From Candidatus Eiseniibacteriota bacterium (GTDB taxonomy: Bacteria; Eisenbacteria; RBG-16-71-46): a stretch of 52,057 nucleotides of DNA. Positions 2,873 to 47,850 of this stretch are shown here, in pieces. The first letter of the stretch is position 1; each line of letters begins with the position of its first letter. Below the pieces are notes generated by a model that searched no databases, was not told where the DNA came from, and saw only the letters and a program-made list of their open reading frames with translations. The position numbers were made by a program, and so were the translations under genes. The stretch lies in assembly GCA_041492985.1 (NCBI GenBank), contig JBGPXY010000001.1, positions 1 to 52,057 on the forward strand, in the 5' to 3' direction.

Positions 2873-2899
2873 TGGAGGCGGCACCCGGATTCGAACCGG
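2873..2899 (-). repeat. 27-nt direct repeat of the 3' end of tRNA-Cys (T-arm 3' part, acceptor and CCA); att-like scar
   Basis: TGGAGGCGGCACCCGGATTCGAACCGG is identical to 4547-4573 inside the intact tRNA-Cys. No matching 5' acceptor strand lies nearby, so this is not a gene. Confidence 0.75.
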
Positions 2900-3765: not shown

Positions 3766-4101
3766 ATGTCGGAACGGCCACTCGCCTGGCTCGGCTCCTC
3801 TCTCACGGACCTGCGGGCGTTCCCTGCCGACGCGCGCGGAGCCGCTGGCTATCAGCTGAGGCGAGTCCAATCCGGCTTGATGCCCAGCGACTGGAAGGCC
3901 GTGTCCTCCGTCGGGCCGGGGGGGTACGAGATCCGCGTGCACACGGGAGTCGAGCATCGGGTCTTCTACGTGGCCAAGTTCAGCGAGGCGATTTACGTGC
4001 TGCACGCCTTCGAGAAGAAGTCGCGGCAGACCCGTTCGGACGAGATCGAGGTTGGTCGACGCCGCTATGCAAGACTCGAGGCCCAGCGAAGAGGAGCCTG
4101 A
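3766..4101 (+). CDS. Type II toxin, RelE/HigB superfamily (phage Gp49-like)
   Basis: 111 aa with LTDLRAFPADARGAAGYQL..VQSG..P.DWK....GPGGYEIRV....EHRVFYVAKFSEAIYVLHAFEKKSRQT, the typical Gp49/HigB-like pattern. An HTH antitoxin follows 10 nt downstream. Confidence 0.8.
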   Translation: MSERPLAWLGSSLTDLRAFPADARGAAGYQLRRVQSGLMPSDWKAVSSVGPGGYEIRVHTGVEHRVFYVAKFSEAIYVLHAFEKKSRQTRSDEIEVGRRRYARLEAQRRGA

Positions 4102-4111
4102 GGAGGAAGCG

Positions 4112-4411
4112 ATGGCCACCCGAATTCGACAGTCATCCGGAAACGTTTTCCGAGACCTGGGATTTCCCCGCGAGGAGGCGGAGCACCTGAGAATCCGCTC
4201 CGAACTCATGATCCGGCTCACCAAGCTCATCGAGGGAAGGCGTCTTACCCAGGCTCAGGCCGCGCGGCTGCTCGGCGTCACTCAACCGAGGATAAGCGAT
4301 CTTGTACGCGGCAAGATCGATCGCTTCAGCGTGGATAGCCTGATCGAGATGCTGGGCCGGACGGGCGCCCGGATCGCGGTCGTGGTGAAGCCGCGGAGGC
4401 GAGTGGCCTGA
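4112..4411 (+). CDS. XRE-family HTH antitoxin (HigA-like)
   Basis: 99 aa with RBS GAGGAGGAAG. The sequence GNVFRDLGF...LTQAQAARLLGVTQPRISDLVRGKIDRFSVDSLIEML is typical of HTH_37/HigA antitoxins. Confidence 0.8.
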   Translation: MATRIRQSSGNVFRDLGFPREEAEHLRIRSELMIRLTKLIEGRRLTQAQAARLLGVTQPRISDLVRGKIDRFSVDSLIEMLGRTGARIAVVVKPRRRVA

Positions 4412-4546: not shown

Positions 4547-4621
4547 TGGAGGCGGCACCCGGATTCGAACCGGGGAATAAGGGTTTTGCAGACCCTCGCC
4601 TTACCACTTGGCTATGCCGCC
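4547..4621 (-). tRNA. tRNA-Cys (anticodon GCA), CCA encoded
   Basis: The minus strand reads GGCGGCA TA GCC AAGTGGTAA GGC G AGGGT CTGCAAA ACCCT TATTC CCCGG TTCGAAT CCGGG TGCCGCC T CCA. This folds as a cloverleaf with a GCA anticodon and the U73 discriminator characteristic of tRNA-Cys. Confidence 0.95.
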
Positions 4622-4685
4622 CCAACGGGCCGAGCACTCTAGCATCGTAGCGGCAGCTCTTGCCAGCGGTGGACATCACTCAACG

Positions 4686-4925
4686 AATCCCCCCGCCCCC
4701 CGCGCCCTTCTCTCCTCGGTGCACCTCGGTGATTCGGCTCGGCTCGAACTCTCTGACGTGATGGGACGCAGGGTGGCGATGAGAGATTGGGCTTCGCTCG
4801 AGGGCGGCGCACACACGGTTCCGTTGGCCGACGAGACCAGGTTCAGCCCTGGCGTGTGCGGCGTTCGGCTCACGCTCGCGATCCGGCACCGTCGCGACGA
4901 GCGGCGTAATTCTCTCGCCCTGATC
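4686..4925 (+). pseudogene. Relic of a FlgD-Ig/T9SS-type C-terminal sorting domain with no N-terminal body
   Basis: NPPAPRALLSSVHLGDSARLELSDVMGRRVAMRDWASLEGGAHTVPLADETRFSPGVCGVRLTLA...RRNSLALI aligns block-for-block with the C-terminal domains at 25480-25717 and 33770-34002 (NP...L.L.VYDV.GRRV......G.H.V.W......GVYF.R......R.L...). Upstream, the frame runs straight into the tRNA-Cys gene. Confidence 0.45.
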
Positions 4926-4948: not shown

Positions 4949-6388
4949 TCAGAGCTTTCGGAACTCCGCGGTTTCGCCCTGCGCGCCAGGATTGCCGCGG
5001 GAGAATCCACCTGGCCCGGCCGATCCCACCACGGTCTGATTCCCAGTTCGCGTGAAAGAACTGGCCGCGTCCTCGAGAATCGCGATGCTCGGGCCGCCGC
5101 CGCCGCCGCCGCCGGCACCGCCACGGCCGCCGGTACCGCCACGGCCGCCGTTTCCGCTTAGGCCCGTACGGCCTCCCAGGAAGTCGGACGCCTGGGCTCC
5201 GGGCTCGCCGCCGACGCCGAAGGTGCCGCCGGCGCCGCCGTCTCCGCCTGGGCCACCGCTGCCGCCATTGGCCGCAACGATGACGTTGTTCAAGAGCGAG
5301 CCGGCTGAGCCCTGCGCGAGCAAGACGCCGAAAGATCCGCCGCCGCCGGCGCCGCCGGCACCACCCTTTCCTCCTCCGCCCCCCGCTCCGCCGCCGCCGC
5401 CGCCCGGGCCGCAAATCAAAAGCGTTCCGACGCCGGCGCCTCCGCCCCCCCCTCCTCCTCCGTTCTGACCGTCGATAGCCTTGTTGCCACCTGCGGGCAC
5501 GTAGCCGCCGCCGACGAAGTTGCCGAAGGACCCGCCCGACGCTCCGTGCGCTCCGTCGCTAACCGGCTGGCCGAAGCCGCCCACGTCGCCGAAATGGGGT
5601 GAGACGAGGACCTGGCCGCCCCTGCCGCCCAAGCCGTAGCCGGGGCCAGAGCCCGGTCGGCCACTAGCACCATCGCCCAGGGTTCCATAGCCGCCGTCTC
5701 CACCACTGCTACCGATCGTGGAACTCTGGCCCGCCCCTCCATCGTTGGGGCATTCGCCGCCGTCGGCGCCCCTCGCCCCGGCGCCCGTCGCGTCGAGTCC
5801 AGCCGCGCCGGGGGGACCCGTCGTCCCCGCCTTGCCCCGGCCCGCGTAGATCCGGTTGTCCGCGATCACGACGCCCTGACTCCCGTTCAGGAGATGGACG
5901 CCGATCGAACTGCCGCCCGAGGCCGTGGCGTCGGCGCTGCGAATGGAGAAGCCGTCGATCAGGAGCGAATCGGCGTTGCTCCCTGACATCGCCGTCGGCC
6001 CGCCCGAGATGACGGTGGAGTCGGTCGCGAGATCGCGGACCCAGGTCGCGCCGCTGTAGCCGCCGTGGAGGCTCATTCTCGAGCGGAGCGTGATGCTGCC
6101 GGCATACGTTCCATAGGCGACGTAGATGTCGGCGCGCGTGTTCCCGGTGGCCGCGACGTCGATCGCCTTCTGAATGGTCTTGAATGGCGCCGGTTGGGTC
6201 CCAACATTCGCATCGTCGCCCGTCGCGGCGCTGACGAAGTAGTTTCCTGGCACGTTCGGGACCCCCGGCGGGCCCGGGTTATTCGGCGCGGTAGGAGATT
6301 GCTTGCTGCAGCCAGTCGCAACCCCCAGAGCGAGCAACGTCACGAACGCCAGGGCCAGCCTGGTGGCCTGATGGATTCTATGATTCAT
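4949..6388 (-). CDS. Lipoprotein with DUF1565/right-handed beta-helix-like N-domain and a long Gly-rich low-complexity C-terminal half
   Basis: RBS GAGGAGG. Signal plus lipobox MNHRIHQATRLALAFVTLLALGVATGC. NYFVSAATGDDANVGTQPAPFKTIQKAIDVA..ADIYVAYGTYAG is DUF1565-like. The C-terminal roughly 200 aa are dominated by GGxGG runs. Confidence 0.7.
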   Translation of the reverse strand: MNHRIHQATRLALAFVTLLALGVATGCSKQSPTAPNNPGPPGVPNVPGNYFVSAATGDDANVGTQPAPFKTIQKAIDVAATGNTRADIYVAYGTYAGSITLRSRMSLHGGYSGATWVRDLATDSTVISGGPTAMSGSNADSLLIDGFSIRSADATASGGSSIGVHLLNGSQGVVIADNRIYAGRGKAGTTGPPGAAGLDATGAGARGADGGECPNDGGAGQSSTIGSSGGDGGYGTLGDGASGRPGSGPGYGLGGRGGQVLVSPHFGDVGGFGQPVSDGAHGASGGSFGNFVGGGYVPAGGNKAIDGQNGGGGGGGGAGVGTLLICGPGGGGGGAGGGGGKGGAGGAGGGGSFGVLLAQGSAGSLLNNVIVAANGGSGGPGGDGGAGGTFGVGGEPGAQASDFLGGRTGLSGNGGRGGTGGRGGAGGGGGGGPSIAILEDAASSFTRTGNQTVVGSAGPGGFSRGNPGAQGETAEFRKL

Positions 6389-6489: not shown

Positions 6490-6590
6490 GCTTCGTTCCC
6501 CCTCCAGTCCTCTCAAACGACATCACCCCAGCGAGAACAGGTCGCTGGGGCGATTGGCTATCGGTCTGAGGCGATGTCGGTTGCGTGACT
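6490..6590 (+). repeat. Intergenic module, short variant (copy A')
   Basis: Hairpin CCCCAGCGA-GAACAGG-TCGCTGGGG (6526-6550), followed by CGATTGGCTATCGGTCTGAGGCGAT and GTGACTTTGGC. Shares the hairpin-proximal blocks with 16583-16636 and 40402-40450. Confidence 0.55.
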
Positions 6591-6740: not shown

Positions 6741-6941
6741 CTGCTACCGTTTGCTACCGTCTCAGAGTCCCAACGAGTCCTCTCGTGTCCCCTCCTGTCC
6801 CCGCAAATGATATCGCCCCAGCGAGGCAACTCGTTGGGGCGATGGGGGGAATCACTTGGGGCGATGCGGCTTGCGCGCTCTCGTTGAAAAACAAGCCTCC
6901 AGGTTTTGCAGACCCTCGCCTTACCACTTGGCTATGCCGCC
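6741..6941 (+). repeat. Intergenic module, full-length copy B, ending in a 40-nt tRNA-Cys 5'-half copy
   Basis: Collinear with 16508-16694. Contains decamers CTGCTACCGT/TTGCTACCGT, GAGTCCTCTCGTGTCCC, decamers CGTGTCCCCT/CCTGTCCCCG, hairpin 1 at 6816-6839, two GGGGCGAT boxes, hairpin 2 at 6868-6897 and TTTGCAGACCCTCGCCTTACC... Confidence 0.7.
6902..6941 (-). pseudogene. tRNA-Cys 5'-half fragment (positions 1-41: acceptor 5' strand, D-arm, anticodon stem-loop); not a functional tRNA
   Basis: 40/40 identity to 4582-4621. Identity breaks inside the 3' strand of the anticodon stem. No T-arm or 3' acceptor strand follows. Confidence 0.8.
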
Positions 6942-7224
6942 TCGGAAGTGTCGCGGGGCGCGGAAGGTAGCACGCCGAAAGAGGGAGCAACAACCTGAGT
7001 GGCCCGGAGGAGTGTGGGTTCAACAAGCGTCCAAGAGCAAGGTTCTCTACGACAGCGGGTCAACCCCACTTCCAGGTAGGCATGGGCGCCGTGAGGGCAT
7101 CATGCGCCGCGTTCGATTCCCCTGGGCCGAGCACGAGAGTTTCCGGGTGCCGGGCGCGCATCGTCCGGAATCGGCTGGCGTCGATCTCTCGCGAGATACG
7201 GGCCAACCGCGTTGCCGATGGGCA

Positions 7225-10459: not shown

Positions 10460-11202
10460 GCGTCCTCCCCGCTTGGGCGAGCCGTGCGGCGCGAGCCAGC
10501 CAGGCCGCCATCCTTGCGGACCCGCCAGAGATGGAGCCCGACCAGGAGCACCAGGGCCAGCGGCAGGATGACGCAGTGGAGGACGTAGAAGCGCAGGAGG
10601 GCGTTCTCGCCGACGATGTTCCCACCCAGCAGCAGATAGCGGAACGGCGGCCCGAGGACCGGCATCGCCTTCACCATGTTCGTGCCGACCGAGACCGCCC
10701 AGATGGCGAGCTGATCCCACGGTAGCAGGTAGCCGGTGTAGCTCAGCAGCAGCGTGAGGAGCAGCAGAACCACGCCGATCACCCAGTTGAACTCGCGCGG
10801 CGGACGGTAGGCCTTGTGATAGAAGACGCGCAGCATGTGCAGGAAGACAATGAACACCATCGCGTGCGCGGGCCAGCGGTGCAGATTGCGAAGGAACATC
10901 CCGTTGCTCACGGTGAACTGCAGCTCCTTCATGTCGTGGTAAGCCTGCGGCACCGAGGGATGGTAGTAGAGCATCAGCAGCAGCCCTGTGGCGGTCAGGA
11001 TGGCGAACAGGATGAGGCCGATGGCGCCCAGGTAGTACGTGCTCGAGCTTTCGAGGCTGCGCCGCCGCACCTTCGCAGGGTGCAGATGCAGGAGGAGACT
11101 CTCCATCACCACCATGACCCGGTTGCGATTCGTAGCCCGGATCCCGTGGCGGACGATGGAGTGCCACACGCGGCTCTCGGTGATCGACGTCGGCAGCCTC
11201 AT
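10456..11202 (-). CDS. Cytochrome b6-like (N-terminal four-helix, heme-binding part of cytochrome b)
   Basis: 248 aa with [25 protein letters not shown] and [26 protein letters not shown], the paired His ligands on helices B and D. The [15 protein letters not shown] motif is present. Confidence 0.9.
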
Positions 11203-16507: not shown

Positions 16508-16694
16508 TTGCTACAATTTGCTACCGTCTCAACTTCCTCATGAGTCCTCTCGTGTCCCTTCGTGTCCCCTCGAAGGATATCTCCCCAGCGAAGGCAACTC
16601 GCTGGGGCGATTGGGCTATCGGTCTGGGGCGATATCGCTCGCGGGCTCGGCGTTGAAGAAAATCGCGCCGAAATTTGCAGACCCTCGCCTTACC
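16508..16694 (+). repeat. Intergenic module, full-length copy C, ending in a 21-nt tRNA-Cys fragment
   Basis: Collinear with 6741-6941. Decamers at 16508-16527 and 16551-16570. Hairpin 1 at 16583-16607, hairpin 2 at 16647-16671, and TTTGCAGACCCTCGCCTTACC at 16674-16694. Confidence 0.7.

Positions 16695-18014: not shown

Positions 18015-18018
<4 letters not shown>
16831..18018 (-). CDS. Serine hydrolase, beta-lactamase/transpeptidase-like fold (class C / EstB-like)
   Basis: 395 aa with the SxxK motif ASITKP. The TTG start overlaps the kinase stop as TTGA. The N-terminus MSLRTGTPEEVGMSPDRVR parallels the paralog MKLRDGDPEEAGMSAERIR. Confidence 0.85.
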
Positions 18019-21662
<3,644 letters not shown>

Positions 21663-26264: not shown

Positions 26265-28982
26265 TCACTTCCGCTCTCCCTGCCTCTCGCCCATTCGCGC
26301 CTTCAGCCGCTTCGCCCAGCCCAGCGACAGCGCGATCTCGCGCCGCTCGGCCACGCCACGCGGCGGGCGGGTGAACAGGAACCGGTCGCTGATCGGATCG
26401 TAGTCGTAGTCGCGGAACGCGATCTCGGTGGCCGCCGGGGGGACCTCGAACAGCGCTTCGGGCTGTCCGATCGCAGGGCCGCCGCCGCGCGCGTCAATGG
26501 GCACGCGCATCAGGATCTCACCGCTGACTTCGAACAGCTCACGCCCCGCCCGACCCCAGCGTATGGCGCCGGCCCCGCCGGTCGAGAGTTGCCAACTCCC
26601 TGCGCTCCCGTCCAGCCGGCGCAGGCAGACCTCCTCGCGTCGGGTCTTGTTCGTGACGTAGGCCAGCCACCCGCCGTCGGGAGACACCCTGCCGGCCAAC
26701 TCGTAGCCGTCGCCCTCGATGCGGATCTCCCGGGACGGGACGTCGCCGTCCGCCGCGGCAATGTGGATGCGGCCCGTGCGCTGCCCGTAGTCACAGTAGA
26801 CGACTCCGCGGCCGTCAGGGGTGACGTCGGTCACGATCAGCGGGTGCGGGGCGCGCGCCCGCTCGCGCTCGCCACCCGCGCCGTCCAGGCGGCGCACCAC
26901 CACCACCTCGCTTCCTGCGGAATCCCTCCTGGTGTACGCGATCCGCACACCGTCGGGAAACCAGGCTCCGGGACCGCTGCGGCCGCCGTAGGTGAGGCGG
27001 TTGATCGCGCCGCTGCGGAGATCGGCGAGCCACAGGTCGGTCGCCCCGCCCCCGGGGCCCGCCGCGATCAGGGCGCGCGCGCCATCGGGTGAGATGCGCA
27101 GCTGGGTATAGGGCCCGGCGGGGATCGCGGTCGGTGTCCAGCGACCCGACCGGTCCATCCACCCCACCTCGCGCGTCACCTCGCGTTCTCCGCCGGGGAG
27201 CCAAGCGATCGTCCCGTCGTCGGCGATGCCGAAGAATGATGCTCCGCTCGACGCGTCGCCGCTCACCCCGGCGAGCACCGGCACCGGATCCTGCGTGATG
27301 CGGGGGTCGCGGGGGTCGATGCGGGCGGCATAGAGGTCGGTGCCCCGGGCCAGGAGGACATACCCGCCAGGGGCCCAGGCGGCGCGCCGCGCGCCCTTGT
27401 AGAGATGACGGCGCTCCCCGGTGCGCACGTTGACTGCGTCGATGCCGGCGTCGTCGTAGCCTCCGGGGCTGTCCACGGTCTGCACGGTGAACACCACCCA
27501 CGGCCCGCCGTCGAGCGCGCATGGGAACCGGTGCGTCCGCTCCCGCCTCGTGGTGTCGAGGGCGGTGATGGCGACCGGCGTGCCTCCGCTCTCCGGGATC
27601 CGGTAGAGCGGCTCCGTGGTCTCGCGCGAATACACGATCGTGCCGTCGTCGAGCCACGTGCCGAGCCTGTCCTGAAGCGCGTCGGCGAGCTCGACCGGGG
27701 TGCCGCCGCGAACCGAGACCTTGCACATCTTGCGGGTGTCGAAGAACCCGATCCATTGGCCGTCGCGCGAGAAGAACATGTTGCGCGCCCCGTCGGCGCC
27801 CGGGATCTCAATGTCTTCGCGCGCATCCAGCCGGCGCAGGCGCAGTTTCAGCACGCCCCCGATGCGCACCGTGTAGGCGATCGCCCGGCCGTCGGGAGCG
27901 ATGGCCATGGGGTGATAGCTGATGTCCTCGGCCACGCGCTGCCCCCCGGCGGGCACGATGCTCAACTCGGTCGCGGAGGGCGCGGGCGGCGGCATGCGCC
28001 ACAGCGAGACGGCGAGGGCGACCACGGCGGCCGCGGCGAGAAGCCAGGGAATGAGCGCGGCGCGACGCGCGGGTGCCGGCCCCGTCGCGGCGCCCGCCTC
28101 GGGCAGGGTGTCCCCGGGGTTGGCCGCCAGGTCCTCGAGCGCGATGCGCGCCTCACCGATCGCCTGCAGGCGCCGCCGCGGGTCCTTGGCCAGGCAGCGC
28201 ACGAGCAGCCGTCGCCAGCGCGGGGAGAGTCCGGACGGTAGCGCCGACCAGTCGGGCTCGTCGCGCATCACCGAGGCGAGCGTGTCGGAAATGGTGTCGC
28301 CCACGAAGGCGTGGCGCCCGGTGAGCATCTCGTAGACGACGGCGCCGAATGCCCACACGTCGGCGCGGCGGTCGGCCTCGCGCCCGCGCGCCTGCTCAGG
28401 CGACATATAGGCGGCGGTCCCCAGGATCACTCCCTCGTGGGTCATCCGCTGGGTGAGGGTCGGCGATTGGCTGAGCTCGGCGGTCGAGCCGCTCGCATCG
28501 GTCGCAAGTGCGCGGGCGAGACCGAAGTCCAGTACCTTGACCGTGCCGTCGGGCCGGAGCTTCACGTTGGCGGGCTTGAGGTCCCGGTGCACGATGCCGC
28601 GCTCGTGCGCGTACTCGAGCGCCTCGGCCAGCTGCCGCGCGATGGGCAGGGCGTCGGCGGTGGCGAGCGCCCCCGAATGGATGCGCTCGGCGAGCGTTTG
28701 CCCTTCCACCAACTCCATGACGAGCGCGTGCGAGCCGCCTGCCTCCTCGACCCCGAAGATCGATGCGATCCCGGCGTGGCTCAAGGCCGCCAGCAGCCGG
28801 GCCTCGCGCTCGAAGCGGGCGAGGCGCTCGGCGTCGCCCGCCAGGGCATCGGGCAGCACCTTGATCGCCACCTCGCGCCCGAGGCGCGGGTCGCGCGCGC
28901 GGTACACCTCCCCCATCCCGCCCGCGCCGAGCGGGGCGACGATCTCGTAGGGGCCGAGGCGAGTGCCGGGGGTGAGTGGCAT
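26265..28982 (-). CDS. Ser/Thr protein kinase with one TM helix and a periplasmic TolB-like/WD40-like beta-propeller region
   Basis: 905 aa. Kinase motifs GAGGMGEVY, HRDLKPAN, DFG, SPEQ. A TM helix lies around ALIPWLLAAAAVVALAV. Repeated SPDG/APDG...Y propeller blades. Confidence 0.9.
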   Translation of the reverse strand: MPLTPGTRLGPYEIVAPLGAGGMGEVYRARDPRLGREVAIKVLPDALAGDAERLARFEREARLLAALSHAGIASIFGVEEAGGSHALVMELVEGQTLAERIHSGALATADALPIARQLAEALEYAHERGIVHRDLKPANVKLRPDGTVKVLDFGLARALATDASGSTAELSQSPTLTQRMTHEGVILGTAAYMSPEQARGREADRRADVWAFGAVVYEMLTGRHAFVGDTISDTLASVMRDEPDWSALPSGLSPRWRRLLVRCLAKDPRRRLQAIGEARIALEDLAANPGDTLPEAGAATGPAPARRAALIPWLLAAAAVVALAVSLWRMPPPAPSATELSIVPAGGQRVAEDISYHPMAIAPDGRAIAYTVRIGGVLKLRLRRLDAREDIEIPGADGARNMFFSRDGQWIGFFDTRKMCKVSVRGGTPVELADALQDRLGTWLDDGTIVYSRETTEPLYRIPESGGTPVAITALDTTRRERTHRFPCALDGGPWVVFTVQTVDSPGGYDDAGIDAVNVRTGERRHLYKGARRAAWAPGGYVLLARGTDLYAARIDPRDPRITQDPVPVLAGVSGDASSGASFFGIADDGTIAWLPGGEREVTREVGWMDRSGRWTPTAIPAGPYTQLRISPDGARALIAAGPGGGATDLWLADLRSGAINRLTYGGRSGPGAWFPDGVRIAYTRRDSAGSEVVVVRRLDGAGGERERARAPHPLIVTDVTPDGRGVVYCDYGQRTGRIHIAAADGDVPSREIRIEGDGYELAGRVSPDGGWLAYVTNKTRREEVCLRRLDGSAGSWQLSTGGAGAIRWGRAGRELFEVSGEILMRVPIDARGGGPAIGQPEALFEVPPAATEIAFRDYDYDPISDRFLFTRPPRGVAERREIALSLGWAKRLKARMGERQGERK

Positions 28983-29065
28983 CGGTGGAATCTACAGCAT
29001 GACCGTCCTTTCCTCCGATGAAGCGCCGGCTGCGTTCTGGCCGAGGTTCAGCTGGCTAATGCCTC

Positions 29066-29217
29066 CCATCGGTGGCCACCGTTGGCCACCCTTGAGACGA
29101 CGCCCCAGAGGACTCAACCCTCTGGGGCGTCGCGCATTGTATTGCCGCGGACCTGCTTGCAGACTCGGTCTCGTAAGTGACGTGTTTTCGAGGTCCCGCG
29201 TTTGCAGACCCTCGCCT
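29066..29217 (+). repeat. Intergenic module, diverged copy D, ending in a 17-nt tRNA-Cys fragment
   Basis: Same geometry as copies B and C. Decamers CGGTGGCCAC/CGTTGGCCAC at 29070-29089. Hairpin 1 CCCCAGAGG-ACTCAAC-CCTCTGGGG at 29103-29127. Hairpin 2 at 29149-29196. TTTGCAGACCCTCGCCT at 29201-29217. Confidence 0.55.
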
Positions 29218-29265
29218 GACCACACGAGGGACGAGGCCGGCGCGCCTGGAGGCGAAGGGCCCGAG

Positions 29266-40303: not shown

Positions 40304-40380
40304 GCGGTAAGATGCCGGACCCCTTCTGGCAGGTCCACGGAGAGTTCGAAGGTGGCCCCGGCGCACCCGGCGCGGGCCCC

Positions 40381-40450
40381 AGGTCCCTCCGATGGAATCA
40401 GCCCCGGCGAGAATAACTCGCTGGGGCGATTGGCTATTGGTCCGGAGCCT
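40381..40450 (+). repeat. Intergenic module, short variant (copy E)
   Basis: Hairpin CCCCGGCGAG-AATAA-CTCGCTGGGG (40402-40426, one G-U pair when read on the plus strand). It is followed by CGATTGGCTATTGGTCCGGAGC and GTGACTGTGGC, as in copy A'. Confidence 0.5.
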
Positions 40451-40507: not shown

Positions 40508-41371
40508 TCATGCGACCCGGGCCGCGAGATCGCGCAGGAAATCCCCGGGCTCGAAGCCGTAGTCCTGTCGCGCCGGGCGGATATCGTAGCCCTTGGCCAC
40601 GACCAGCCGGTCCAACTGATCCGGATTGAATGGGACGGGCAGGCGACAGCGCACCGCGGCCCGCAGGAGTCCGATCGGCACGGGGACACACCTCACCCGC
40701 ATGCCCGCGCGTCTCAGGGCGTTCGCCATGTCGGGCGCCGTACACGGTTGTTCGGCGCACAGCGTGTAGACGGCCCGCGAGCGCACGAAGCGATTCACGA
40801 CATCGAGAAGGAACTGCGTGACCCGCTCCGCCGACACGGGGGCGTACCGCACCGGACCGTTGTCGCGGAAATCCACCATGATGCGCGTGCGCAGTGCGAG
40901 TCCGACCAGGACGTCGATCCCCTCCGCCGACTCGAGGCCGTAGATCTCGGCCGGTCGCACGATGACCCAGTCCAGACCGCTCGCGCGCACCGCTTCCTCG
41001 GCGCGCAGCTTGGATGCCCCGTAGGCCCCCGCATCGGGATGTGCGCAGATGGTGCTCATGTGGATCAGCCGCTGGCCCGGCCGCGCGCTGTCCAGCAGCC
41101 GGCGCGTGAGGACGTGGTTCACGTGCTCATAGCGCGACCCATCGTCGCTATGTGTCACCGCGGCCAGGTGGACGATGATGTCGGCCTCGCCGATGCGCGC
41201 GGCGTGACCCTGGCACCGCTCGAGCCCGTCCGGCAGCAGCTCCACGCGCCCACCGCGGTCGTCCACCGGCTGCCGGTGCACCGTGGCGAGGATCCGGTGG
41301 GTGGGCAGCAGGCCGTCGATGAGTGCCCGGCCCAGTGCGGAGCTCGCACCCGTCACCAGCACGGTGCTCAT
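40508..41371 (-). CDS. NAD-dependent epimerase/dehydratase-family (SDR) protein
   Basis: 287 aa. N-terminal Rossmann VLVTGASSALG. Catalytic YGASK. ATGA overlap with the upstream GT2 gene. Confidence 0.8.
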   Translation of the reverse strand: MSTVLVTGASSALGRALIDGLLPTHRILATVHRQPVDDRGGRVELLPDGLERCQGHAARIGEADIIVHLAAVTHSDDGSRYEHVNHVLTRRLLDSARPGQRLIHMSTICAHPDAGAYGASKLRAEEAVRASGLDWVIVRPAEIYGLESAEGIDVLVGLALRTRIMVDFRDNGPVRYAPVSAERVTQFLLDVVNRFVRSRAVYTLCAEQPCTAPDMANALRRAGMRVRCVPVPIGLLRAAVRCRLPVPFNPDQLDRLVVAKGYDIRPARQDYGFEPGDFLRDLAARVA

Positions 41372-42144
41372 GCGCCGGTCCGGTGCCGCTGGTAGCGCGG
41401 CCCGAAGCGGTACGCCAGCAGGTGACGCAGGAACTCGAACACCGCCCCCGGCCTCACGAACGACTTGCGACCACCCAGGCTCTGGAACTTGACGGGGATC
41501 TCGTACATGCGCAGGCGCAGGGCCAGGCAATTGAGCATGATCTCCGCGTCGACGAACCAGTCGTCGCTGAGCAGCTCCATGCGCTGGAAGGCCTCCCGCT
41601 TCATGATCTTCGGCTTCGAGTTGACGTCCGAGAAGCCGCGGTAGGCGGGGAACAGCAGATTGAACAGTCGTTGATAGATGAAGGAGATGAAGTTGCGGTA
41701 GAGCCCATCGGCACGCACGACCCGGTAGGTCTTGATGAAGTCGTAGTCCTCGCTCCTGATCTTCGCGAAGCAGGAGAAGATGGCTTCGACCGGGAACTGC
41801 CCGTCGCCGTCGATCACCCCGATGTAACGCCCGCGGCAGGCCTCCAGGCCCTTGCGCATGTCCCAGCCCATGGCCCCCTGCTTGGGCTCGGCGATGCACC
41901 GCACGTGGAGGAGCCTCGCGGCCAGGCTCTGACACACCTCGGGCGTGCGATCCCCCGTTCCGGGCCAGAAGTTCGCGACCAGCACCAGCTCCCATTCGAT
42001 GCGGAACATCGACATGATCCGGTGCAGGTTCTCGACGAACGGGATGATGGACTCACCTGCGCGATAGCACAGGATGGCCATCGAGAATTCCACCGGCGGG
42101 TCCTGCGACTGACTCTCCATCGGGCGCCGAGGATAACCCGTCAC
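41368..42144 (-). CDS. Family-2 glycosyltransferase, polyprenol-phosphate sugar synthase type (ArnC/GtrB/DPM1-like)
   Basis: 258 aa with SMAILCYRAGE (start of the GT-A fold), the IDGDGQFP DxD motif and a C-terminal amphipathic/TM segment. Confidence 0.85.
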   Translation of the reverse strand: MTGYPRRPMESQSQDPPVEFSMAILCYRAGESIIPFVENLHRIMSMFRIEWELVLVANFWPGTGDRTPEVCQSLAARLLHVRCIAEPKQGAMGWDMRKGLEACRGRYIGVIDGDGQFPVEAIFSCFAKIRSEDYDFIKTYRVVRADGLYRNFISFIYQRLFNLLFPAYRGFSDVNSKPKIMKREAFQRMELLSDDWFVDAEIMLNCLALRLRMYEIPVKFQSLGGRKSFVRPGAVFEFLRHLLAYRFGPRYQRHRTGA

Positions 42145-42199
42145 GCGGGCATGTCTAGAATGGCCGCCGAGCGCGCAGCGCGCGCTGGGGCTCGCGGGC

Positions 42200-44224
42200 T
42201 CAGCGCCAGGCCAACCTCACGGCCTCCGCCTCCTGGGCGAGCGCCGCGGCGCGATTCTCCGCTTGCCGTGCATCCGGTCCGCGCGATGCGGCGTCATAGA
42301 ACCCGGCCAGGACCTGCTGGATCATGATCCGGCACCCACGCATCTCCTGGGCGCCCTTCCCCCGGGGTTGCAGTCGTGCAAGGCGTTCAGCTTCCTGCTC
42401 CAGGTAGGCGATGGCGCTCTCGCCGAAGGGCGGTCCGCCGGCCAGCCCACTCAGAAGTTGATACGCCTGCGGTGTGGGCTCGGCCAGATTGGCCCGCCGC
42501 ACCGCCGCCAGGATGCTGGCGGGATCGGGTGATGGCAGACCCGTCAGCATGGCGGTCGCGAGGCTGAGCGCCCGCGTCATCTCCGAGGGGTACTTCAACT
42601 GGCCCGCCACCGCCCGCGGCACGAGCGAGGCCGTCGGTTCGGACCGGGCGTCTGCGAGCACCACCATGCGGCCATCGTTGTAGATGCTCGCCCACTGGCG
42701 CGTCGCCGTCAGTCGCGACAGGAGGGGACTGAAGCGGGGCGATGAGGGAACGATCACCAGATGCACCTGGTTGTCTCTCAGCAGCTGTGGGCCCTGGTCG
42801 GTCGTCTGGATGCGAGTCCACAAGTCCAGCACGCCGGGCGGATAGATCTGCTGGGCCCTCCCGCCCATGAGCAATCGCGTGTCGGGATGGACCCACCGCA
42901 GATAGCCTTCCCATTCCCAGGCCGCCAGCGCGTTGCCCGAGAGCCGGTTGTCGCCGAGGAACTGGCCGGCCGACACCGGGAAGACGTCGGACACGGAGTG
43001 CATGCGATCGAAGATCGTGCTTCCGGTTCGGATGGGGTGGTCCGGGCGATACGCCTGGAAGTTTCGCCACCCCAGCGTGAGCAGTGGCACGATGACGCCG
43101 AGGCACGCCGCGATCGTGACCCACCGGCCCTTGCGAAGCGCCAGCCATCCCAGCAGCCTCGCCAGTGGGGGCGCCGTCGCGAGCACCGCGAGCGGGACGA
43201 ATCTCCGCGACTGGAAGGCCATGAGCGTCGCCGCGCCGAGCAGCACGTATTCGAAGGCCACGGGTCCGAATGCCGCCCGTCGATCAGGTGGAAGAGTCTG
43301 CCGGGTCGACCGCGCGGGGACCTTGCTCAGCAGGCGGGCAAGACCCAGGGCCAGCACCAGCCCGAGGACGACGAACAGCTCCCACGGAAACGGCATCCGA
43401 TCGTTCGACAGGAGCGGCAGCCACTCGGGCACCTGTCTCCAGCCCGGGCTCGAAGCGACCACGAGCGGCTCCTCGAGGTTGACCAGCCCGAAGGGGCTCA
43501 GCGCGCACGCGACCACGCACGCCGCCAGGCAAGCGGGGAGCCGCCAGTGCTTGCGAATGTTCGCGCGCCCATGCGTGCGCCAGTCCTCGATCAGAGCGCA
43601 CGACACCCAGAGACCCACCATCCCCAGGCCGAATACGAACGCGCCGTGCAGATTGGCCCAGACTGCCATGAGCGGGACGGTCCACCAGATGCGACGGTGG
43701 TCCTCGAACGAGCGGAACATCACCAGCATGCTGAGTGGAACGAGCACCAGAGTCATTAGATTTGGGCGCAGCAGGACGAAGCGGAAACACGCCAGCACGA
43801 TTCCCGCCGACAGCAGGGCCGCTGTCGGCGCATGGCCGCCGCGGCGGCGTGCGACCAGGAAGAGGAGCGCCGACATCACGGCCAGCAGGCCCGCTTTCAA
43901 CACCAGGAGACCCGCGTCCCTGCCCCAGAGCCAGGTCGAGTAAATGAGGAGGTGGGACAGCCAGTTCTGGTTGATCCACACCCGGCCACCGGTGGTGAAG
44001 GACCAATCGTCCGGGCTGCCGAGCTTGCCCTGGACCACATCGCGCCCGCCGGCCAGGGCCATGAAGAGATCGGCGGCCGATTCCGAAGTGGCCCAGGTGA
44101 CGAGCACCGCCGCCGCCGAGAGCAGCACAAGTCCCACCACGACGGCGACGGGTGTCTTCGCTCGCGGTTCGACACGCGGCCTCGCCCCTTCGGAACGCGC
44201 GAGCGGTTGGAGTTTCCTTGCCAT
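42200..44224 (-). CDS. Large polytopic membrane protein, putative GT-C-type (ArnT/PMT-like) glycosyltransferase with soluble C-terminal domain
   Basis: 674 aa. The first 400 aa contain about 10 or more TM helices and a WANLHGAF motif. It sits in an operon with a polyprenol-P sugar synthase. The family assignment is not certain. Confidence 0.55.
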   Translation of the reverse strand: MARKLQPLARSEGARPRVEPRAKTPVAVVVGLVLLSAAAVLVTWATSESAADLFMALAGGRDVVQGKLGSPDDWSFTTGGRVWINQNWLSHLLIYSTWLWGRDAGLLVLKAGLLAVMSALLFLVARRRGGHAPTAALLSAGIVLACFRFVLLRPNLMTLVLVPLSMLVMFRSFEDHRRIWWTVPLMAVWANLHGAFVFGLGMVGLWVSCALIEDWRTHGRANIRKHWRLPACLAACVVACALSPFGLVNLEEPLVVASSPGWRQVPEWLPLLSNDRMPFPWELFVVLGLVLALGLARLLSKVPARSTRQTLPPDRRAAFGPVAFEYVLLGAATLMAFQSRRFVPLAVLATAPPLARLLGWLALRKGRWVTIAACLGVIVPLLTLGWRNFQAYRPDHPIRTGSTIFDRMHSVSDVFPVSAGQFLGDNRLSGNALAAWEWEGYLRWVHPDTRLLMGGRAQQIYPPGVLDLWTRIQTTDQGPQLLRDNQVHLVIVPSSPRFSPLLSRLTATRQWASIYNDGRMVVLADARSEPTASLVPRAVAGQLKYPSEMTRALSLATAMLTGLPSPDPASILAAVRRANLAEPTPQAYQLLSGLAGGPPFGESAIAYLEQEAERLARLQPRGKGAQEMRGCRIMIQQVLAGFYDAASRGPDARQAENRAAALAQEAEAVRLAWR

Positions 44225-44281
44225 GGGGCCCGGATTAGCACAGCCGACGACGACAACGCAACAATCCGCGGACGACCTCGA

Positions 44282-45229
44282 TCAGCCCAACTCCCTTCGG
44301 GCGAGCCACAGTCCGGGCGCAAGGGGCAGCAGCAGGGTGAATCCCCGGAACAGGAGCGTCACTCCGAGACTCGCCTCGATGGGCACGCCCGAGAGGTGAA
44401 GCATCGCGACGCAGGTGCCGTCGAAGGTCCCGATCCCGCCCGGGATCAGGGTGAACGTCGCCACCATCGAGGCGGTCACGTAGCTGAGGAACACCACCGC
44501 GGGACTCGCGCGGATCCCCATCGCCGCCAGCGCGGCCGCGAGCGTGGCGGCATCGAGGAGGACGATCGCCAGCTGGAATGCACCGGCCTCGAGGAGCGCC
44601 TTGCGCCGGGCGCCCCCCGCGCCTCGCGCGCTGCGCAGGGCCCGTGTGGCGTGGATGAACGGCGGCGCTCGGCGGAGCCACCGGGGCAGCCTCGCCGCGC
44701 CGCGCTTTCGCAGCCACAGGCCGGCGATCGGGACGACGAAGATCAGGACGAGCACCGGCGTCGCGAGCCATGCGAGCGCGCGGCGCGAGTCGCGCATGAG
44801 CAGCCCGACCACAAGGGCGGCCAGGACCGCCGCCACCGAGGCGAAGTAGTAGCCGACCAGACTGATGACGACCGCGCCGGTGGCGGTCCGGCGCGATACC
44901 CCACGACGCCCGAGTCCGCGCACGACCAGGAGGGTCCCGCTCAACCCCGCCGAGGGGATCGCCTGGTCGGTGAAGAGCTTCGCGAGGCCGAGGGGCAGGA
45001 GATTCACCAGCGAGCGCCTCGTGCCAAGGCCGACGAGACTGCGCTGCCAGATCGCCGCCGCGCACACGTAGGTCGCGGCCTGCAGCACGAGCGCCACGGC
45101 CAGCCACTCCGGACGCACGTGCCGAACGAGCTCCGAGAAGCGCTCGACTTCGCCGACGTGCGCCACCACGAGGACGAGACCGAGCAGGACGAGCAGGCCC
45201 GTCGTCCAGACCGCGAGCCGCCGGCTCAT
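44282..45229 (-). CDS. UPF0104 / lysylphosphatidylglycerol-synthase-TM-region-like (flippase-like) membrane protein
   Basis: 315 aa from MSRRLAVW with about 8 TM helices. Conserved ...LIPGGIGTFDG... motif. ATGA overlap with mgtA. Confidence 0.8.
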   Translation of the reverse strand: MSRRLAVWTTGLLVLLGLVLVVAHVGEVERFSELVRHVRPEWLAVALVLQAATYVCAAAIWQRSLVGLGTRRSLVNLLPLGLAKLFTDQAIPSAGLSGTLLVVRGLGRRGVSRRTATGAVVISLVGYYFASVAAVLAALVVGLLMRDSRRALAWLATPVLVLIFVVPIAGLWLRKRGAARLPRWLRRAPPFIHATRALRSARGAGGARRKALLEAGAFQLAIVLLDAATLAAALAAMGIRASPAVVFLSYVTASMVATFTLIPGGIGTFDGTCVAMLHLSGVPIEASLGVTLLFRGFTLLLPLAPGLWLARRELG

Positions 45230-47850
45230 GCTCTGGCGAGGCGCCGGTAGAACCACCGTTTCACCAGGTCGACCGTGACGAGATAGAGGACGACGATCCC
45301 CCCGAGGATCGCGAGGAACCTCAGGGGGATGGGGACGAATCCGAGTCGCGCTCCCAGCGTCGTGAAGGGCAGCATCGTCGCGGCGGCGATCACCACGAAG
45401 GCCGTGACCAGGAGCAGCGTGCTCGGCCACGAACGGAAAGGACCGCGCCGGCTTCGGATCACGAAGATGACCAGCACCTGCGTGGCGAGGGATTCGACGA
45501 ACCAGCCCGTGTGGAACCCCGCCTCGCCGAGACGGAACAGGCGCAGCATCACGTAGAAGGTCAGGAAGTCGAACAGCGAGCTGACCGGTCCGATCGCGAG
45601 CATGAAGTCGCGGATGAACGTCATGCTCCACCGGTGCGGCCGGGCGATGAACTCATCATCGACGCGGTCCATCGGGATCGGGATCTCCGAGATGTCGTAG
45701 AGGAGGTTGTTCACCAGGATCTGCACCGGGAGCAGGGGAAGGAAAGGCAGGATCAGCGTGCCGCCCGCCATGCTGAACATGTTCCCGAAGTTGGAGCTGG
45801 TGCCCATCATCAGGTACTTGAGGATGTTGCCGAACGTCCGGCGCCCTTCCAGCACGCCGCGGTGGACCACGCTCAGGTCGTGGTCGAGCAGGATCATGTC
45901 CGCGGCCTCGCGGGCCACGTCCACGGCCCCGTCGACCGAGAGACCGACGTCCGCCGAGTGGAGCGAGGGCGCGTCGTTGATGCCGTCTCCCAGGTATCCC
46001 ACGACATGTCCGCGGCTCCGGAGCGCCTGGATCACGCGGAGCTTCTGAGGTGGCGTCACGCGGCAGAAGAGGCTGACATTCTCGGCCCGGTCCGCGAGCG
46101 CCGCGTCGCTCATGGCCTCGAGCTCACGACCGGACAGGACTCCCCCGACGGGCAGCGCGAGCTCTCGGCACAGATGCTGGGTCACCAGCTCGTTGTCGCC
46201 GGTGACGATCTTGACGGTGACTCCGCTCGCCTCGAGGGCGTGTACCGCCTCCGACGCGCCGGCCTTGGGAGGGTCCTCGAACGTGGCGAATCCGGCGAAG
46301 AACAGCTCCGTCTCATCGTCGAGGATGGCATGCACGTGGTCGGGAGCCGTCTCCTTCCACGCGACCCCCAGCACTCGGAATCCTTCTCGCCCGAAGGTCT
46401 CGAATCGCTCGTTCACCTGGCGCCTCGCCGCGTCGTCGAGCGGCAGGAGTCGCTCCGGACCGCCGTCTTCGTATCGCGTCGCATGCAGGAGCACGTCTTC
46501 GAATGCGCCCTTGAGCACGAGCAGGCGCTGCCGCCCGTCGTCGGCGAGCACCGAGACCCGCCGCCGCTCGAAATCGAACGGCATCTCGTCGATCTTGCGC
46601 CAGCCGCTTACGTCCACGTCGGTGCGACGCAGGATCGCCTCGTCCAGCGGCGTCTTCAGTCCGCTCTCGAAGTAGCTGTTCAGGTAGGCGAGGTGAAGGA
46701 CGCGCGGGCTCTCGCGGCCCTGGGGATCCAGGTGCCTCGAGAGGCGGATCACGGCCTCGGTGAGGGTGCCGGTCTTGTCGGTGCACAGCACGTCCATGCT
46801 GCCCAGGTCATGCACCGAGGCCAATCGCTTCACGATCACCCGCTCCTTCGCCATCCGCAGCGCGCCACGCGAGAGCGTGACGGTGACGATCATGGGCAGC
46901 AACTCAGGCGTGAGCCCCACGGCGAGTGCCACCGCGAACATGAACGACTCGATCCACGGGCGATGGAAGCTGGCGTTGACCAGCAGGACGAACAGGATCA
47001 TGAGCACTGCGTTCCCGACGATGAACCGACCGAAATCGCGGATGCCCCGTTCGAAGGCGGTGGCTGGGGGCCGGGCCAGCAGGCTCTCGCCGATCTCGCC
47101 GAGCGCGGTGGCGACACCGGTGCGGCAGACGAGCACGCTCGCGGTCCCGCTGACCACGGAGGTACCCATGAACACCGCGTTCGAGGCGGAGGCCGGATCG
47201 GTTGCGGGCTCGGAAAGGTCGCCCGCGTGCTTCTCGACCGGGAACGGCTCACCGGTGATGAGCGCTTGATTGAGGAAGAAATCCCGGGCCCCGACCACGC
47301 GGCCGTCCGCGGGGACGAGCCTCCCGGGCGAGAGCTCGACCAGGTCTCCCGGGACGATGTGGTCGCGGAGCAGCTCCAGGCGGTGGCCCCCTCGCACCAC
47401 GGTCACCTGGACCGCCACCGAGTGCTGCAACCTTTCGGCGGCGCGCCCGGCGCGATGCTCCTGCACCGCGTCCAGCGTGACGCTCAGCCCGACGACCGCC
47501 GCGATGATGAAGAAGCTCGCGGTCTGTCCGGTGAAGAACGAGATCAGCCCCGCGGCAAGCAGCAGCAGGACCAGCGGGTTGCCGAGTCGCGTGAGGAGTT
47601 GGAGCGCGAATGTCTTCGTGCGGCGGGGCTGGATCCGGTTCGGACCGTACTTCAGGAGTCGACGCTCGGCTTCGGCCGGTTCGAGCCCTGTGCCATCCGT
47701 GCCCAGCTCGGCCAGGATCGAAGTCCATGGGCGCGGCCAGAAAGGTCCGCCCTGGCCGGTGACGGACGCGCTCGTGTGTGCGCTCATGGGAAGGAGGCCG
47801 AGCCTACTCCCCGCTCCCGCTCCCGGCCAGGCGGGTCCCGGTCGGTCCAT
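45226..47850 (-). CDS. mgtA: Mg2+-importing P-type ATPase (MgtA type); start uncertain (47850 or, more likely, 47787)
   Basis: Motifs DKTGTLT, TGDN, GDGINDAP. The MgtA-specific TM region reads LPFLPLLPVQILVNNLLYDISEIPIPMDRVDDEFIARPHRW. Confidence 0.9.
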   Translation of the reverse strand: MDRPGPAWPGAGAGSRLGLLPMSAHTSASVTGQGGPFWPRPWTSILAELGTDGTGLEPAEAERRLLKYGPNRIQPRRTKTFALQLLTRLGNPLVLLLLAAGLISFFTGQTASFFIIAAVVGLSVTLDAVQEHRAGRAAERLQHSVAVQVTVVRGGHRLELLRDHIVPGDLVELSPGRLVPADGRVVGARDFFLNQALITGEPFPVEKHAGDLSEPATDPASASNAVFMGTSVVSGTASVLVCRTGVATALGEIGESLLARPPATAFERGIRDFGRFIVGNAVLMILFVLLVNASFHRPWIESFMFAVALAVGLTPELLPMIVTVTLSRGALRMAKERVIVKRLASVHDLGSMDVLCTDKTGTLTEAVIRLSRHLDPQGRESPRVLHLAYLNSYFESGLKTPLDEAILRRTDVDVSGWRKIDEMPFDFERRRVSVLADDGRQRLLVLKGAFEDVLLHATRYEDGGPERLLPLDDAARRQVNERFETFGREGFRVLGVAWKETAPDHVHAILDDETELFFAGFATFEDPPKAGASEAVHALEASGVTVKIVTGDNELVTQHLCRELALPVGGVLSGRELEAMSDAALADRAENVSLFCRVTPPQKLRVIQALRSRGHVVGYLGDGINDAPSLHSADVGLSVDGAVDVAREAADMILLDHDLSVVHRGVLEGRRTFGNILKYLMMGTSSNFGNMFSMAGGTLILPFLPLLPVQILVNNLLYDISEIPIPMDRVDDEFIARPHRWSMTFIRDFMLAIGPVSSLFDFLTFYVMLRLFRLGEAGFHTGWFVESLATQVLVIFVIRSRRGPFRSWPSTLLLVTAFVVIAAATMLPFTTLGARLGFVPIPLRFLAILGGIVVLYLVTVDLVKRWFYRRLARA

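Follow-up and report, generated by a model that had tools for sequence, protein, structure and literature searches.

In the 52,057 nts of DNA analysed here (the window, from contig JBGPXY010000001.1 of a Candidatus Eiseniibacteriota bacterium), a module of about 190 nts recurs between genes, and its last block, TTTGCAGACCCTCGCCTTACC..., is the 5′ half of tRNA-Cys(GCA), stopping in the anticodon loop. The module is probably, at roughly two chances in three, the element-side arm of junctions left by islands that integrated one after another at the anticodon loop of a tRNA-Cys gene. The best reading of the locus as a whole is a tRNA-Cys integration hotspot, in which tandem integrase-less units are bounded by a multi-repeat arm and displaced 5′ halves. 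As the full module is always joined to the first half of tRNA-Cys, it is taken to mark the element-side arm and not a small RNA or a free-standing repeat.

The initial annotation, made from the sequence alone, had described the module as not matching any element it recognised, which is wrong for the last 21–40 nts since these are tRNA-Cys. Among the identities it proposed was the conserved arm of an integrative element tied to tRNA fragments, and this one is supported: every full copy is fused at the anticodon loop, with a tRNA promoter region beyond. A tRNA-fragment-aware annotation would have explained the repeat directly.

Junctions between the module and tRNA-Cys fragments

An nhmmer profile built on nine full copies and run against the window (52 kb of the source contig) recovered five copies of the module, all collinear and on the plus strand. 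The focal copy is at 16509–16694 (E 6e-61) and the others are at 6742–6925 (E 8e-52), 6493–6587 (partial; E 6e-21, profile positions 43–138), 40380–40447 (partial; E 5e-9) and 29048–29220 (diverged, here called type II; E 3e-7). The sole other match was the tRNA gene. Alignment and profile agree on exactly five, and the earlier description of five collinear, same-strand, intergenic stretches stands. All five lie within 36 kb upstream of one tRNA-Cys gene, and the counts of module motifs in the window exceed those in dinucleotide-preserving shuffles. Apart from their tRNA parts, the full type I modules extend over 16508..16673 (from sequence and nhmmer) and 6741..6901 (from nhmmer and alignment), both on the plus strand and both read as the element-side arm (P′ for the latter), while the type II module extends over 29048..29200 (plus strand, nhmmer), with the same repeat pattern at 10995–11090 of the metagenomic locus L025.

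The intact tRNA-Cys(GCA) gene is on the minus strand at 4547..4621 (ARAGORN; 69.3 bits with the Rfam tRNA model), and is the only tRNA gene that ARAGORN and Rfam find in the window. Three 5′ fragments in its orientation lie upstream of its 5′ end. The first, at 6902..6941 on the minus strand, is a displaced 5′ half (positions 1–40, 40/40 identical to 4582–4621) that ends just beyond the anticodon loop; its promoter-like flank, 6942..7020 on the same strand, has GTGCTACCTTCC and is homologous to the fragment flanks in L027 and L010. The other two, also on the minus strand, are truncated: 16674..16694 holds positions 17–37 (21/21; D-stem 3′ strand through the anticodon loop) and 29201..29223 holds positions 15–37 (22/23 identical, one mismatch). 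The junction nearest the gene, at 6.9 kb, is then the best preserved, with a 5′ half that is complete and 100% identical, and those farther away have lost part of it. At each of the three junctions the module occupies the place of the tRNA 3′ half. Identity to tRNA-Cys stops at position 37–40, the 3′ edge of the anticodon loop (CTGCAAA), in the window and equally in the copies from other contigs (L010–L027).

Downstream of the gene there is a minus-strand 3′ fragment, 2873..2899 (positions 49–75, 27/27 identical to 4547–4573). With 5′ fragments upstream and a 3′ fragment downstream, tRNA-Cys appears to have been hit from both sides. The arrangement follows the Islander rule that a 5′ fragment stands upstream of the gene and a 3′ fragment downstream (PMC4383910); an intact tRNA gene is accompanied by cognate fragments in the same orientation, their configuration is the correct one and the crossover is at a canonical sublocation. 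The 27-nt 3′ fragment, from the T loop to the 3′ end, is 1.65 kb from tRNA-Cys, and between them are a RelE/ParE-like toxin open reading frame (ORF), 3766–4101, and an HTH_37 HigA-like antitoxin gene, 4052–4411. Together, fragment and toxin-antitoxin pair look like the remnant of an island of the usual orientation on the other side of tRNA-Cys. A HigBA pair homologous to that of 3766–4411 stands between two 5′ fragments in L025.

Two other accounts of the tRNA similarity were tried and rejected. A weak Rfam tRNA match at 6847–6941 (21.5 bits) is not a pseudo-tRNA, as it is driven by the 5′ half alone. A split or intron-containing tRNA is not involved either, as no module is followed by a 3′ half.

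Upstream of the intact gene, the promoter-like region 4622..4705 (minus strand) is partly homologous to other tRNA-Cys upstream regions: it shares ...CCGCTGG...GCTA... with the sequence upstream of the intact tRNA-Cys of L011 and with displaced fragments elsewhere. It may be the P arm brought by the most recent unit.

The mechanism that we infer is site-specific recombination between elements and the anticodon loop of tRNA-Cys(GCA), which would leave hybrid attachment sites with the module as P′ arm. The orientation would be ‘reversed’, in that the attachment site of the element would bear the tRNA promoter region (about 80 nts) and the 5′ half (positions 1–37). Integration would then rebuild an intact tRNA-Cys from the 5′ half of the element and the 3′ half of the resident gene, and the resident promoter and 5′ half would be pushed to the far end of the element and joined there to the arm of about 190 nts. 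Repeated rounds would give a tandem array upstream of tRNA-Cys, in which 6.9, 16.7 and 29.2 kb would mark junctions and the copies at 6.5 and 40.4 kb would be eroded relics. Each displaced tRNA promoter would be directed across the module toward the unit’s first gene, which it may drive. To this extent the earlier proposal of a shared promoter or regulatory cassette is indirectly plausible: a displaced tRNA promoter aims through the module into the adjacent co-oriented gene.

Campbell-type, RecA-dependent integration through the approximately 120 bp of tRNA promoter plus 5′ half, or segmental duplication, would have the same outcome, direct repeats of promoter and 5′ half flanking variable DNA, and would need no dedicated recombinase, so that the absence of an integrase would be expected. 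Against this, the junction falls at the same nucleotides (tRNA position 37–40) in all copies and with both module types, and the arm is built of multiple repeats, as is typical of recombinase sites. Circles bearing exactly a 5′ half that ends in the anticodon loop would also be left unexplained, and homologous recombination as the whole explanation is highly improbable. Two other kinds of element were considered and rejected. A guide like the bridge RNA of IS110 lacks an adjacent IS110 recombinase, and IS110 insertion does not duplicate 40 nts; an end of Tn7 or of a CRISPR-associated transposon (CAST) would imply the wrong type of duplication.

The module in other genomes

A metagenome-wide scan was made with a pattern taken from the middle of the module and not from its tRNA part. 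It returned 17 loci, nine of which are true modules, all from G+C-rich soil contigs; the other 8/17 are low-GC coding coincidences. Scans of viral contigs (IMG/VR) with module blocks yielded one true copy, L027, the remaining matches being phage tRNA 3′ ends or coding sequence. All ten of these further full copies are fused to the tRNA-Cys 5′ half (for L011, which ends at a contig edge, the 5′ half is seen only through the overlapping contig L010). Past every complete displaced half come about 80 nts that share homology with the sequence preceding intact tRNA-Cys genes, as comparison of the intact L011 gene with the displaced fragments in L016, L018, L020, L025a and L025b reveals. L011, like the window, combines a module with an intact tRNA-Cys, here 2.6 kb away. 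The L011 unit also has, between tRNA-Cys and the module, one copy (1170–1244, 90% identical) of the inverted repeat that flanks a degenerate insertion sequence (IS) at 2252–2701 of the window. The contig of L027 begins at the left end of the L027 stretch, with nothing readable toward the tRNA; L043, a 97-kb contig with a homologue of an L027 cargo protein, has neither the module nor tRNA-Cys.

Short units recur among these loci. In L020 the 1.5 kb between two junctions holds a single PQQ-repeat gene, and in L025 two fragments bracket a HigB/HigA pair, accompanied by a truncated type II module. The fragments decay in various ways, by a 2-nt deletion in L010, by a 7-nt deletion and substitutions in L026, and by truncation at 16.7 and 29.2 kb of the window. 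L016, L017 and L024 are one locus seen in three soil metagenomes, and the allele of L016 and L017 lacks 105 nts from within the module relative to L024. Gone with these 105 nts are the two pairs of 10-mers and, of the palindrome described below, the 5′ arm. The presence of this deletion in two of the three metagenomes implies that the module is dispensable in at least that population.

That the module might instead be a dispersed repeat spread over the genome (like a miniature inverted-repeat transposable element, MITE, a repetitive extragenic palindrome, REP, or a bacterial interspersed mosaic element, BIME), which happens to include a tRNA-derived piece, deserves hardly any credence. It could be thought of because the 52 kb contain five copies, none of them inside a gene and all in one orientation, and because the hairpin core resembles generic GC-rich intergenic hairpins of Acidobacteria and Polyangiaceae. 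However, the window copies are confined to the 36 kb upstream of one tRNA-Cys gene, and the ten full copies elsewhere are all joined to the 5′ half and promoter of tRNA-Cys. There is no short target-site duplication, and terminal inverted repeats are lacking, as had been noticed at the outset. With nhmmer no module was found in about 110 kb of other DNA of relatives (L009, L034, L038–L040, L043), and blastn gave no match to it in phage or plasmid collections. A scan of a genome collection with the hairpin pattern gave 8 isolated GC-rich hairpins in Acidobacteria and Polyangiaceae, the module not being among them. Over the window and the roughly 110 kb of relatives’ DNA, the hallmarks of MITE and REP families are missing.

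Integration as the source of the junctions has counterparts of known but uncommon kind. Recombination at the 5′ part of tRNA genes is mentioned, in a passage of PMC6563490 that cites Zhao & Williams 2002, as known and much less frequent than at the 3′ part. In the Islander collection, a 5′ fragment accompanies 159/3919 islands, the anticodon is the centre of about half of all sites, and only 4/3919 are tandems of three or more (PMC4383910). The window resembles tRNA islands of reversed orientation in having an intact gene, co-oriented upstream 5′ fragments, an anticodon-loop crossover and an element that would supply promoter and 5′ half. It differs from Islander islands in that its array is unusually long (three clear junctions and two relics) and in that some units in relatives have one or two genes. 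If the reading of sequential integration is true, the locus is a clear example of a rare integration geometry, in which the promoter and 5′ half of a tRNA gene are exchanged for those of the element, here in an unusually long tandem array that recurs in several uncultured soil bacteria.

Anatomy of the putative arm and the RNA alternative

The sub-features earlier described for the focal copy (10-mer pairs, block, hairpins, second box and terminal block) are present, with several details corrected. On the plus strand they are, in order, 10-mer pair a (16508–16527, TTGCTACAAT/TTGCTACCGT); the block GAGTCCTCTCGTGTCCC (16542–16558); 10-mer pair b (16551–16570, CGTGTCCCTT/CGTGTCCCCT); hairpin 1, a 13-bp palindrome in which 16579–16591 pairs with 16599–16611 (ATCGCCCCAGCGA-N7-TCGCTGGGGCGAT); a second CTGGGGCGAT box (16624–16633); hairpin 2, in which 16647–16652 pairs with 16666–16671; and the terminal block (16674–16694), TTTGCAG...TTACC on that strand. 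The CGAT said to follow hairpin 1 is actually inside its stem, the 13 bp being formed by ATCGCCCCAGCGA and TCGCTGGGGCGAT, and the second box starts about 22–24 nts after the first, not 27–30 nts later. Hairpin 2, present in the focal copy, has not been kept in L020b or in the 6741 subtype. Of the partial copies, 6493..6587 (plus strand) has the second 10-mer pair, the 13-bp palindrome and a second CTGGGGCGAT-type box, and lacks the first 10-mer pair; 40380..40447 (plus strand) has the palindrome plus GATTGGCTATTGGTC and is located where synteny with a relative stops. Both, listed earlier from 6490 and 40381, are limited to the part from the second 10-mer pair through the second box.

The copy at 29066, correctly included in the original list, belongs to the diverged second type, with its own 10-mers (TGGCCACCGT, twice). 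At 29048–29200 this type has TGGCT(R)CG repeats, the pair TGGCCACCGT/TGGCCACCCT and a palindrome formed by GACGCCCCAGAGG and CCTCTGGGGCGTC; its hairpin bears four compensatory pairs. In both known representatives (29066 and L025 10995–11090) the layout of type I is kept and the 10-mers are different (TGGCTACGG, TGGCCACCGT), the positions of the paired 10-mers and of the palindrome being conserved between the types. A layout that is kept while repeat sequences change, with a compensated palindrome, is the pattern expected of binding sites that co-evolve with their proteins, and suggests such sites here.

In the orientation of the tRNA, the whole unit begins with a promoter-like arm of about 80 nts that has an inverted GACCCT(T)CGCC near −75, followed by tRNA positions 1–37, which include GGCGAGGGT and the anticodon loop. 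Hairpin 2 comes next, its near strand GGCGCCGAAA making a partial dyad with GGCGAGGGT around the loop. CTGGGGCGAT then occurs three times, twice directly and once inverted, with the inverted copy and one direct copy making up the 13-bp palindrome; these are followed by two 10-mers of the GTGTCCCCTC type and two of the TTGCTACNGT type. Most copies outside the window end with a second core-like site, GGCGAGGGT-N7-(G/A)CCCT. Putative sites for a recombinase or accessory proteins are the paired 10-mers TTGCTACNGT (twice) and GTGTCCCCTC (twice), and further candidates are the 13-bp palindrome with its extra CTGGGGCGAT box and the GGCGAGGGT core-like motifs.

The far-end dyad GGCGAGGGT-N7-(G/A)CCCT is at the left edge of the module in L018, L024, L026 and L027, is present twice, 33 nts apart, in L026 (~10750–10806), and is mostly lost from the window copies. 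The inverted GACCCT(T)CGCC, some 75 nts upstream of the tRNA start, is seen in the promoter-side flanks of L011, L016, L018, L020 and L025. Both are extra copies of the tRNA-derived motif GGCGAGGGT, and may serve as further recombinase sites or as a second target.

The attP arms of complex tyrosine integrases, such as P′1–P′3 of lambda and P1–P7 of mycobacteriophage L5, offer a comparison. Like them, the module would be an arm of about 200 bp beside the core, with direct 10-mer pairs and further repeats and palindromes, and its layout, though the sites are putative, is constant between subtypes while the repeat sequences change. Unlike lambda-type sites, it has an extra core-like GGCGAGGGT at the far end of the arm and in the promoter-side arm. 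If the integration reading is true, the well-defined site of about 320 bp would have practical interest in the search for new site-specific recombinases.

A separate observation concerns the block GAGTCCTCTCGTGTCC (16542–16558 and 6775–6791), which occurs unchanged as the T-loop/acceptor 3′ end of a gene resembling that for tRNA-Arg(ACG), carried by low-GC viral contigs (L028, L030, L032). The match is probably due to chance, though the block could be a relic of another tRNA 3′ end within the arm.

A structured RNA is a doubtful alternative for the module. It would be either a small RNA of the plus strand, divergent from the gene next to it, or a minus-strand leader that begins at the displaced tRNA promoter and regulates the gene downstream. 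The focal copy folds better than its shuffled controls on the plus strand (z −2.74; −1.06 on the minus strand), 94.5% of the pairs in hairpin 1 are kept while at four pairs both partners have changed, and the G-T wobbles of the palindromes fall more on the plus strand (roughly 7 to 2, by eye). The module is also more conserved than the neighbouring tRNA fragment at 16.7 kb. Weighing against RNA, related sequences can beat a shuffle control without any structure, the double changes in hairpin 1 come mainly from one diverged type II copy, and neither hairpin 2 nor a small GAGTCC hairpin is structurally conserved across subtypes. The 3′ arm of hairpin 1, CTGGGGCGAT, is near-invariant and is repeated directly 22–24 nts on, which looks like a sequence-specific DNA site, and the covariation of hairpin 1 fits a palindromic DNA site equally well. 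Consensus scans around three copies revealed no promoter-like or terminator-like sites on either strand. A check of the module against Rfam gave nothing except tRNA, at gathering thresholds and at E up to 1. A structured-RNA family is recognised by a curated match or by significant covariation for one fold; the module has no such match, and its covariation is mainly that of the one type II copy. In the roughly 110 kb of relatives’ DNA scanned, it is also not found away from tRNA-Cys arrays. The small-RNA family first proposed is not supported, and if the integration reading is right, one candidate is struck from the list of possible new small RNAs. A minus-strand leader from the displaced tRNA promoter would be compatible with sequential integration and not a rival to it.

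Integrase-less units and their cargo

The genes on the module side differ at every locus and are often of the island, defence or toxin-antitoxin kind, with SIR2, ABC-3C, AbiE, HigBA, Mrr, type I restriction-modification (R-M) and KaiC plus histidine kinase among the families beside modules. L025 has a KaiC-like ATPase with a PAS histidine kinase, and AbiEi/AbiEii; L026 has FRG, ABC-3C components and type I restriction fragments; L027 has a 1438-aa SIR2-like protein with a 1212-aa partner, and Mrr and HsdR past the fragment. In the window the units are multigene blocks of 10–12 kb. The first gene after the module is mostly co-oriented with the displaced tRNA promoter. If integration is the correct reading, the locus could show how variable and defence regions accumulate at one place without resident integrases.

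Several points weigh against sequential site-specific integration. No tyrosine or serine recombinase was detected with Pfam and NCBIfam in the 52-kb window or beside any other copy, the scans covering the larger window ORFs and the flanks of L011, L016, L018, L020, L024, L025, L026 and L027. Genes in the window units look ordinary, with cytochromes, kinases and an RND efflux pump among their products, and the units are not distinct in G+C content. The partial modules 6493–6587 and 40380–40447 have no recognisable tRNA fragment, and the former is inside the youngest unit, nearest the tRNA, where simple sequential integration does not predict it. The 16.5-kb module is better preserved than the tRNA fragment that adjoins it, which hints at selection on the module or at recent transfer; it is 85–89% identical to metagenome copies from other organisms. 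Lastly, no empty site, excised circle or presence/absence polymorphism was recovered from the same-species assembly and relatives, in a search that went through the epimerase neighbourhood. The same-species assembly, L035, is 99.85% identical over 30.5–51.4 kb, the part it covers. A relative, L034, is 85% identical and syntenic only for 40516–44262, its synteny ending at 40516, beside the outermost relic at 40380–40447. More distant relatives have other genes at the 40.5-kb position, none with tRNA-Cys there, and around this point the relatives are too rearranged to show a clean insertion.

Units that lie between attachment sites in accretion arrays and lack recombination genes of their own are known as cis-mobilisable elements (CIMEs). 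As no unit here encodes an integrase, the units may have decayed, or may depend for mobilisation on functions supplied in trans, or in cis as for CIMEs. The array is like the accretion of ICESt1/ICESt3 in Streptococcus and the ssrA islands of Dehalococcoides in that units lie side by side at one target, bounded by att-type repeats, and in that units without recombination genes persist between functional-looking sites. It is unlike them in that there a neighbour has an integrase and the 3′ end of the target is displaced, while here no integrase is seen and it is the 5′ end that is displaced. Islander looks for an integrase inside each island, and since none is present in any unit the array would not pass that filter.

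The same absence leads to a different possibility, an integron-like platform, in which integrase-less units of 1–12 kb would be captured at tRNA-Cys by a recombinase encoded elsewhere. The portable site of about 320 bp would consist of the tRNA promoter, the 5′ half, the 190-nt multi-repeat arm and the second core-like site; each insertion would leave a live tRNA promoter transcribing the captured genes, and the lineage would probably be one of Eisenbacteria-like soil bacteria. Chromosomal integron arrays carry toxin-antitoxin and defence cargo, and cargo of this kind is present here too. Across roughly 11 independent loci none of the units has an integrase, certain units consist of one or two genes (the HigBA pair of L025, the PQQ-repeat gene of L020), the first gene after the module is usually co-oriented with the displaced promoter, and the site is conserved across organisms at the 85–89% given above. 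The array is like those of integron cassettes in its one-directional variable genes, each with a conserved site, in its fixed anchor and in possible expression from an upstream promoter; toxin-antitoxin cargo also occurs in relatives. It differs in lacking intI (no integrase was found in the window) and attC-type imperfect palindromes with extrahelical bases, in its tRNA-derived site of about 320 bp and in its 10–12 kb multigene window units, which are unlike cassettes. Moreover, no candidate recombinase has been identified, the decayed fragments and deletion alleles suggest relics and not an active platform, and the contigs are short, so that an integrase may sit at an array end beyond them. 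The integron-like reading is unlikely, but stays open because of the missing integrase and empty site, the ordinary cargo, the fragment-less partial copies and the well-preserved 16.5-kb module. Among tRNA islands, with which sequential integration would class it, the array is unusual in its orientation and length, in its extra core-like motifs and in that an integrase is consistently lacking.

The genes placed earlier next to the module copies are on the minus strand as stated, the ORF listing and Pfam agreeing on PAS-LuxR, Ser/Thr kinase and TetR. The gene beginning at 6388 is also a minus-strand ORF; it was called a lipoprotein gene and encodes a Gly-rich protein without a Pfam match. This gene, 4949–6388, is the only one of the unit nearest the tRNA. 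For its 479-aa product NCBIfam offers no more than a weak resemblance to a surface-protein family of Leptospira, and there are period-9 (GGX-like) nucleotide repeats at 5076–5461.

Three paralogous Ser/Thr kinase genes are present, two inside the array (18015–21662 and 26265–28982) and one outside it (47889–50564). Imperfect repeats in their kinase domains pair 28773–28982 with 47889–48098 (74%) and 21189–21334 with 28512–28657 (73%). The AT skew of 43001–46000, a region that covers an unannotated 674-aa ORF and an LPG-synthase-like gene, is strongly positive (0.22–0.27) and far above that of the rest of the window.

At the other end of the window, the FAD/BBE oxidoreductase of 826–2211 is 84–90% identical to proteins labelled as from Nitrospirota, Methylomirabilis, Geobacteraceae, Eisenbacteria and a betaproteobacterium, an unusual cross-phylum conservation that suggests recent horizontal spread and makes the gene useless as a marker. 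Next to it is a degenerate IS, 2252–2701, with inverted repeats of about 55–75 nts at 2252–2306 and 2627–2701; the sequence at about 2440–2530 was recognised by eye as coding for a C-terminal portion of a transposase like those of the IS110 family (...KTDREIRRWLKR).

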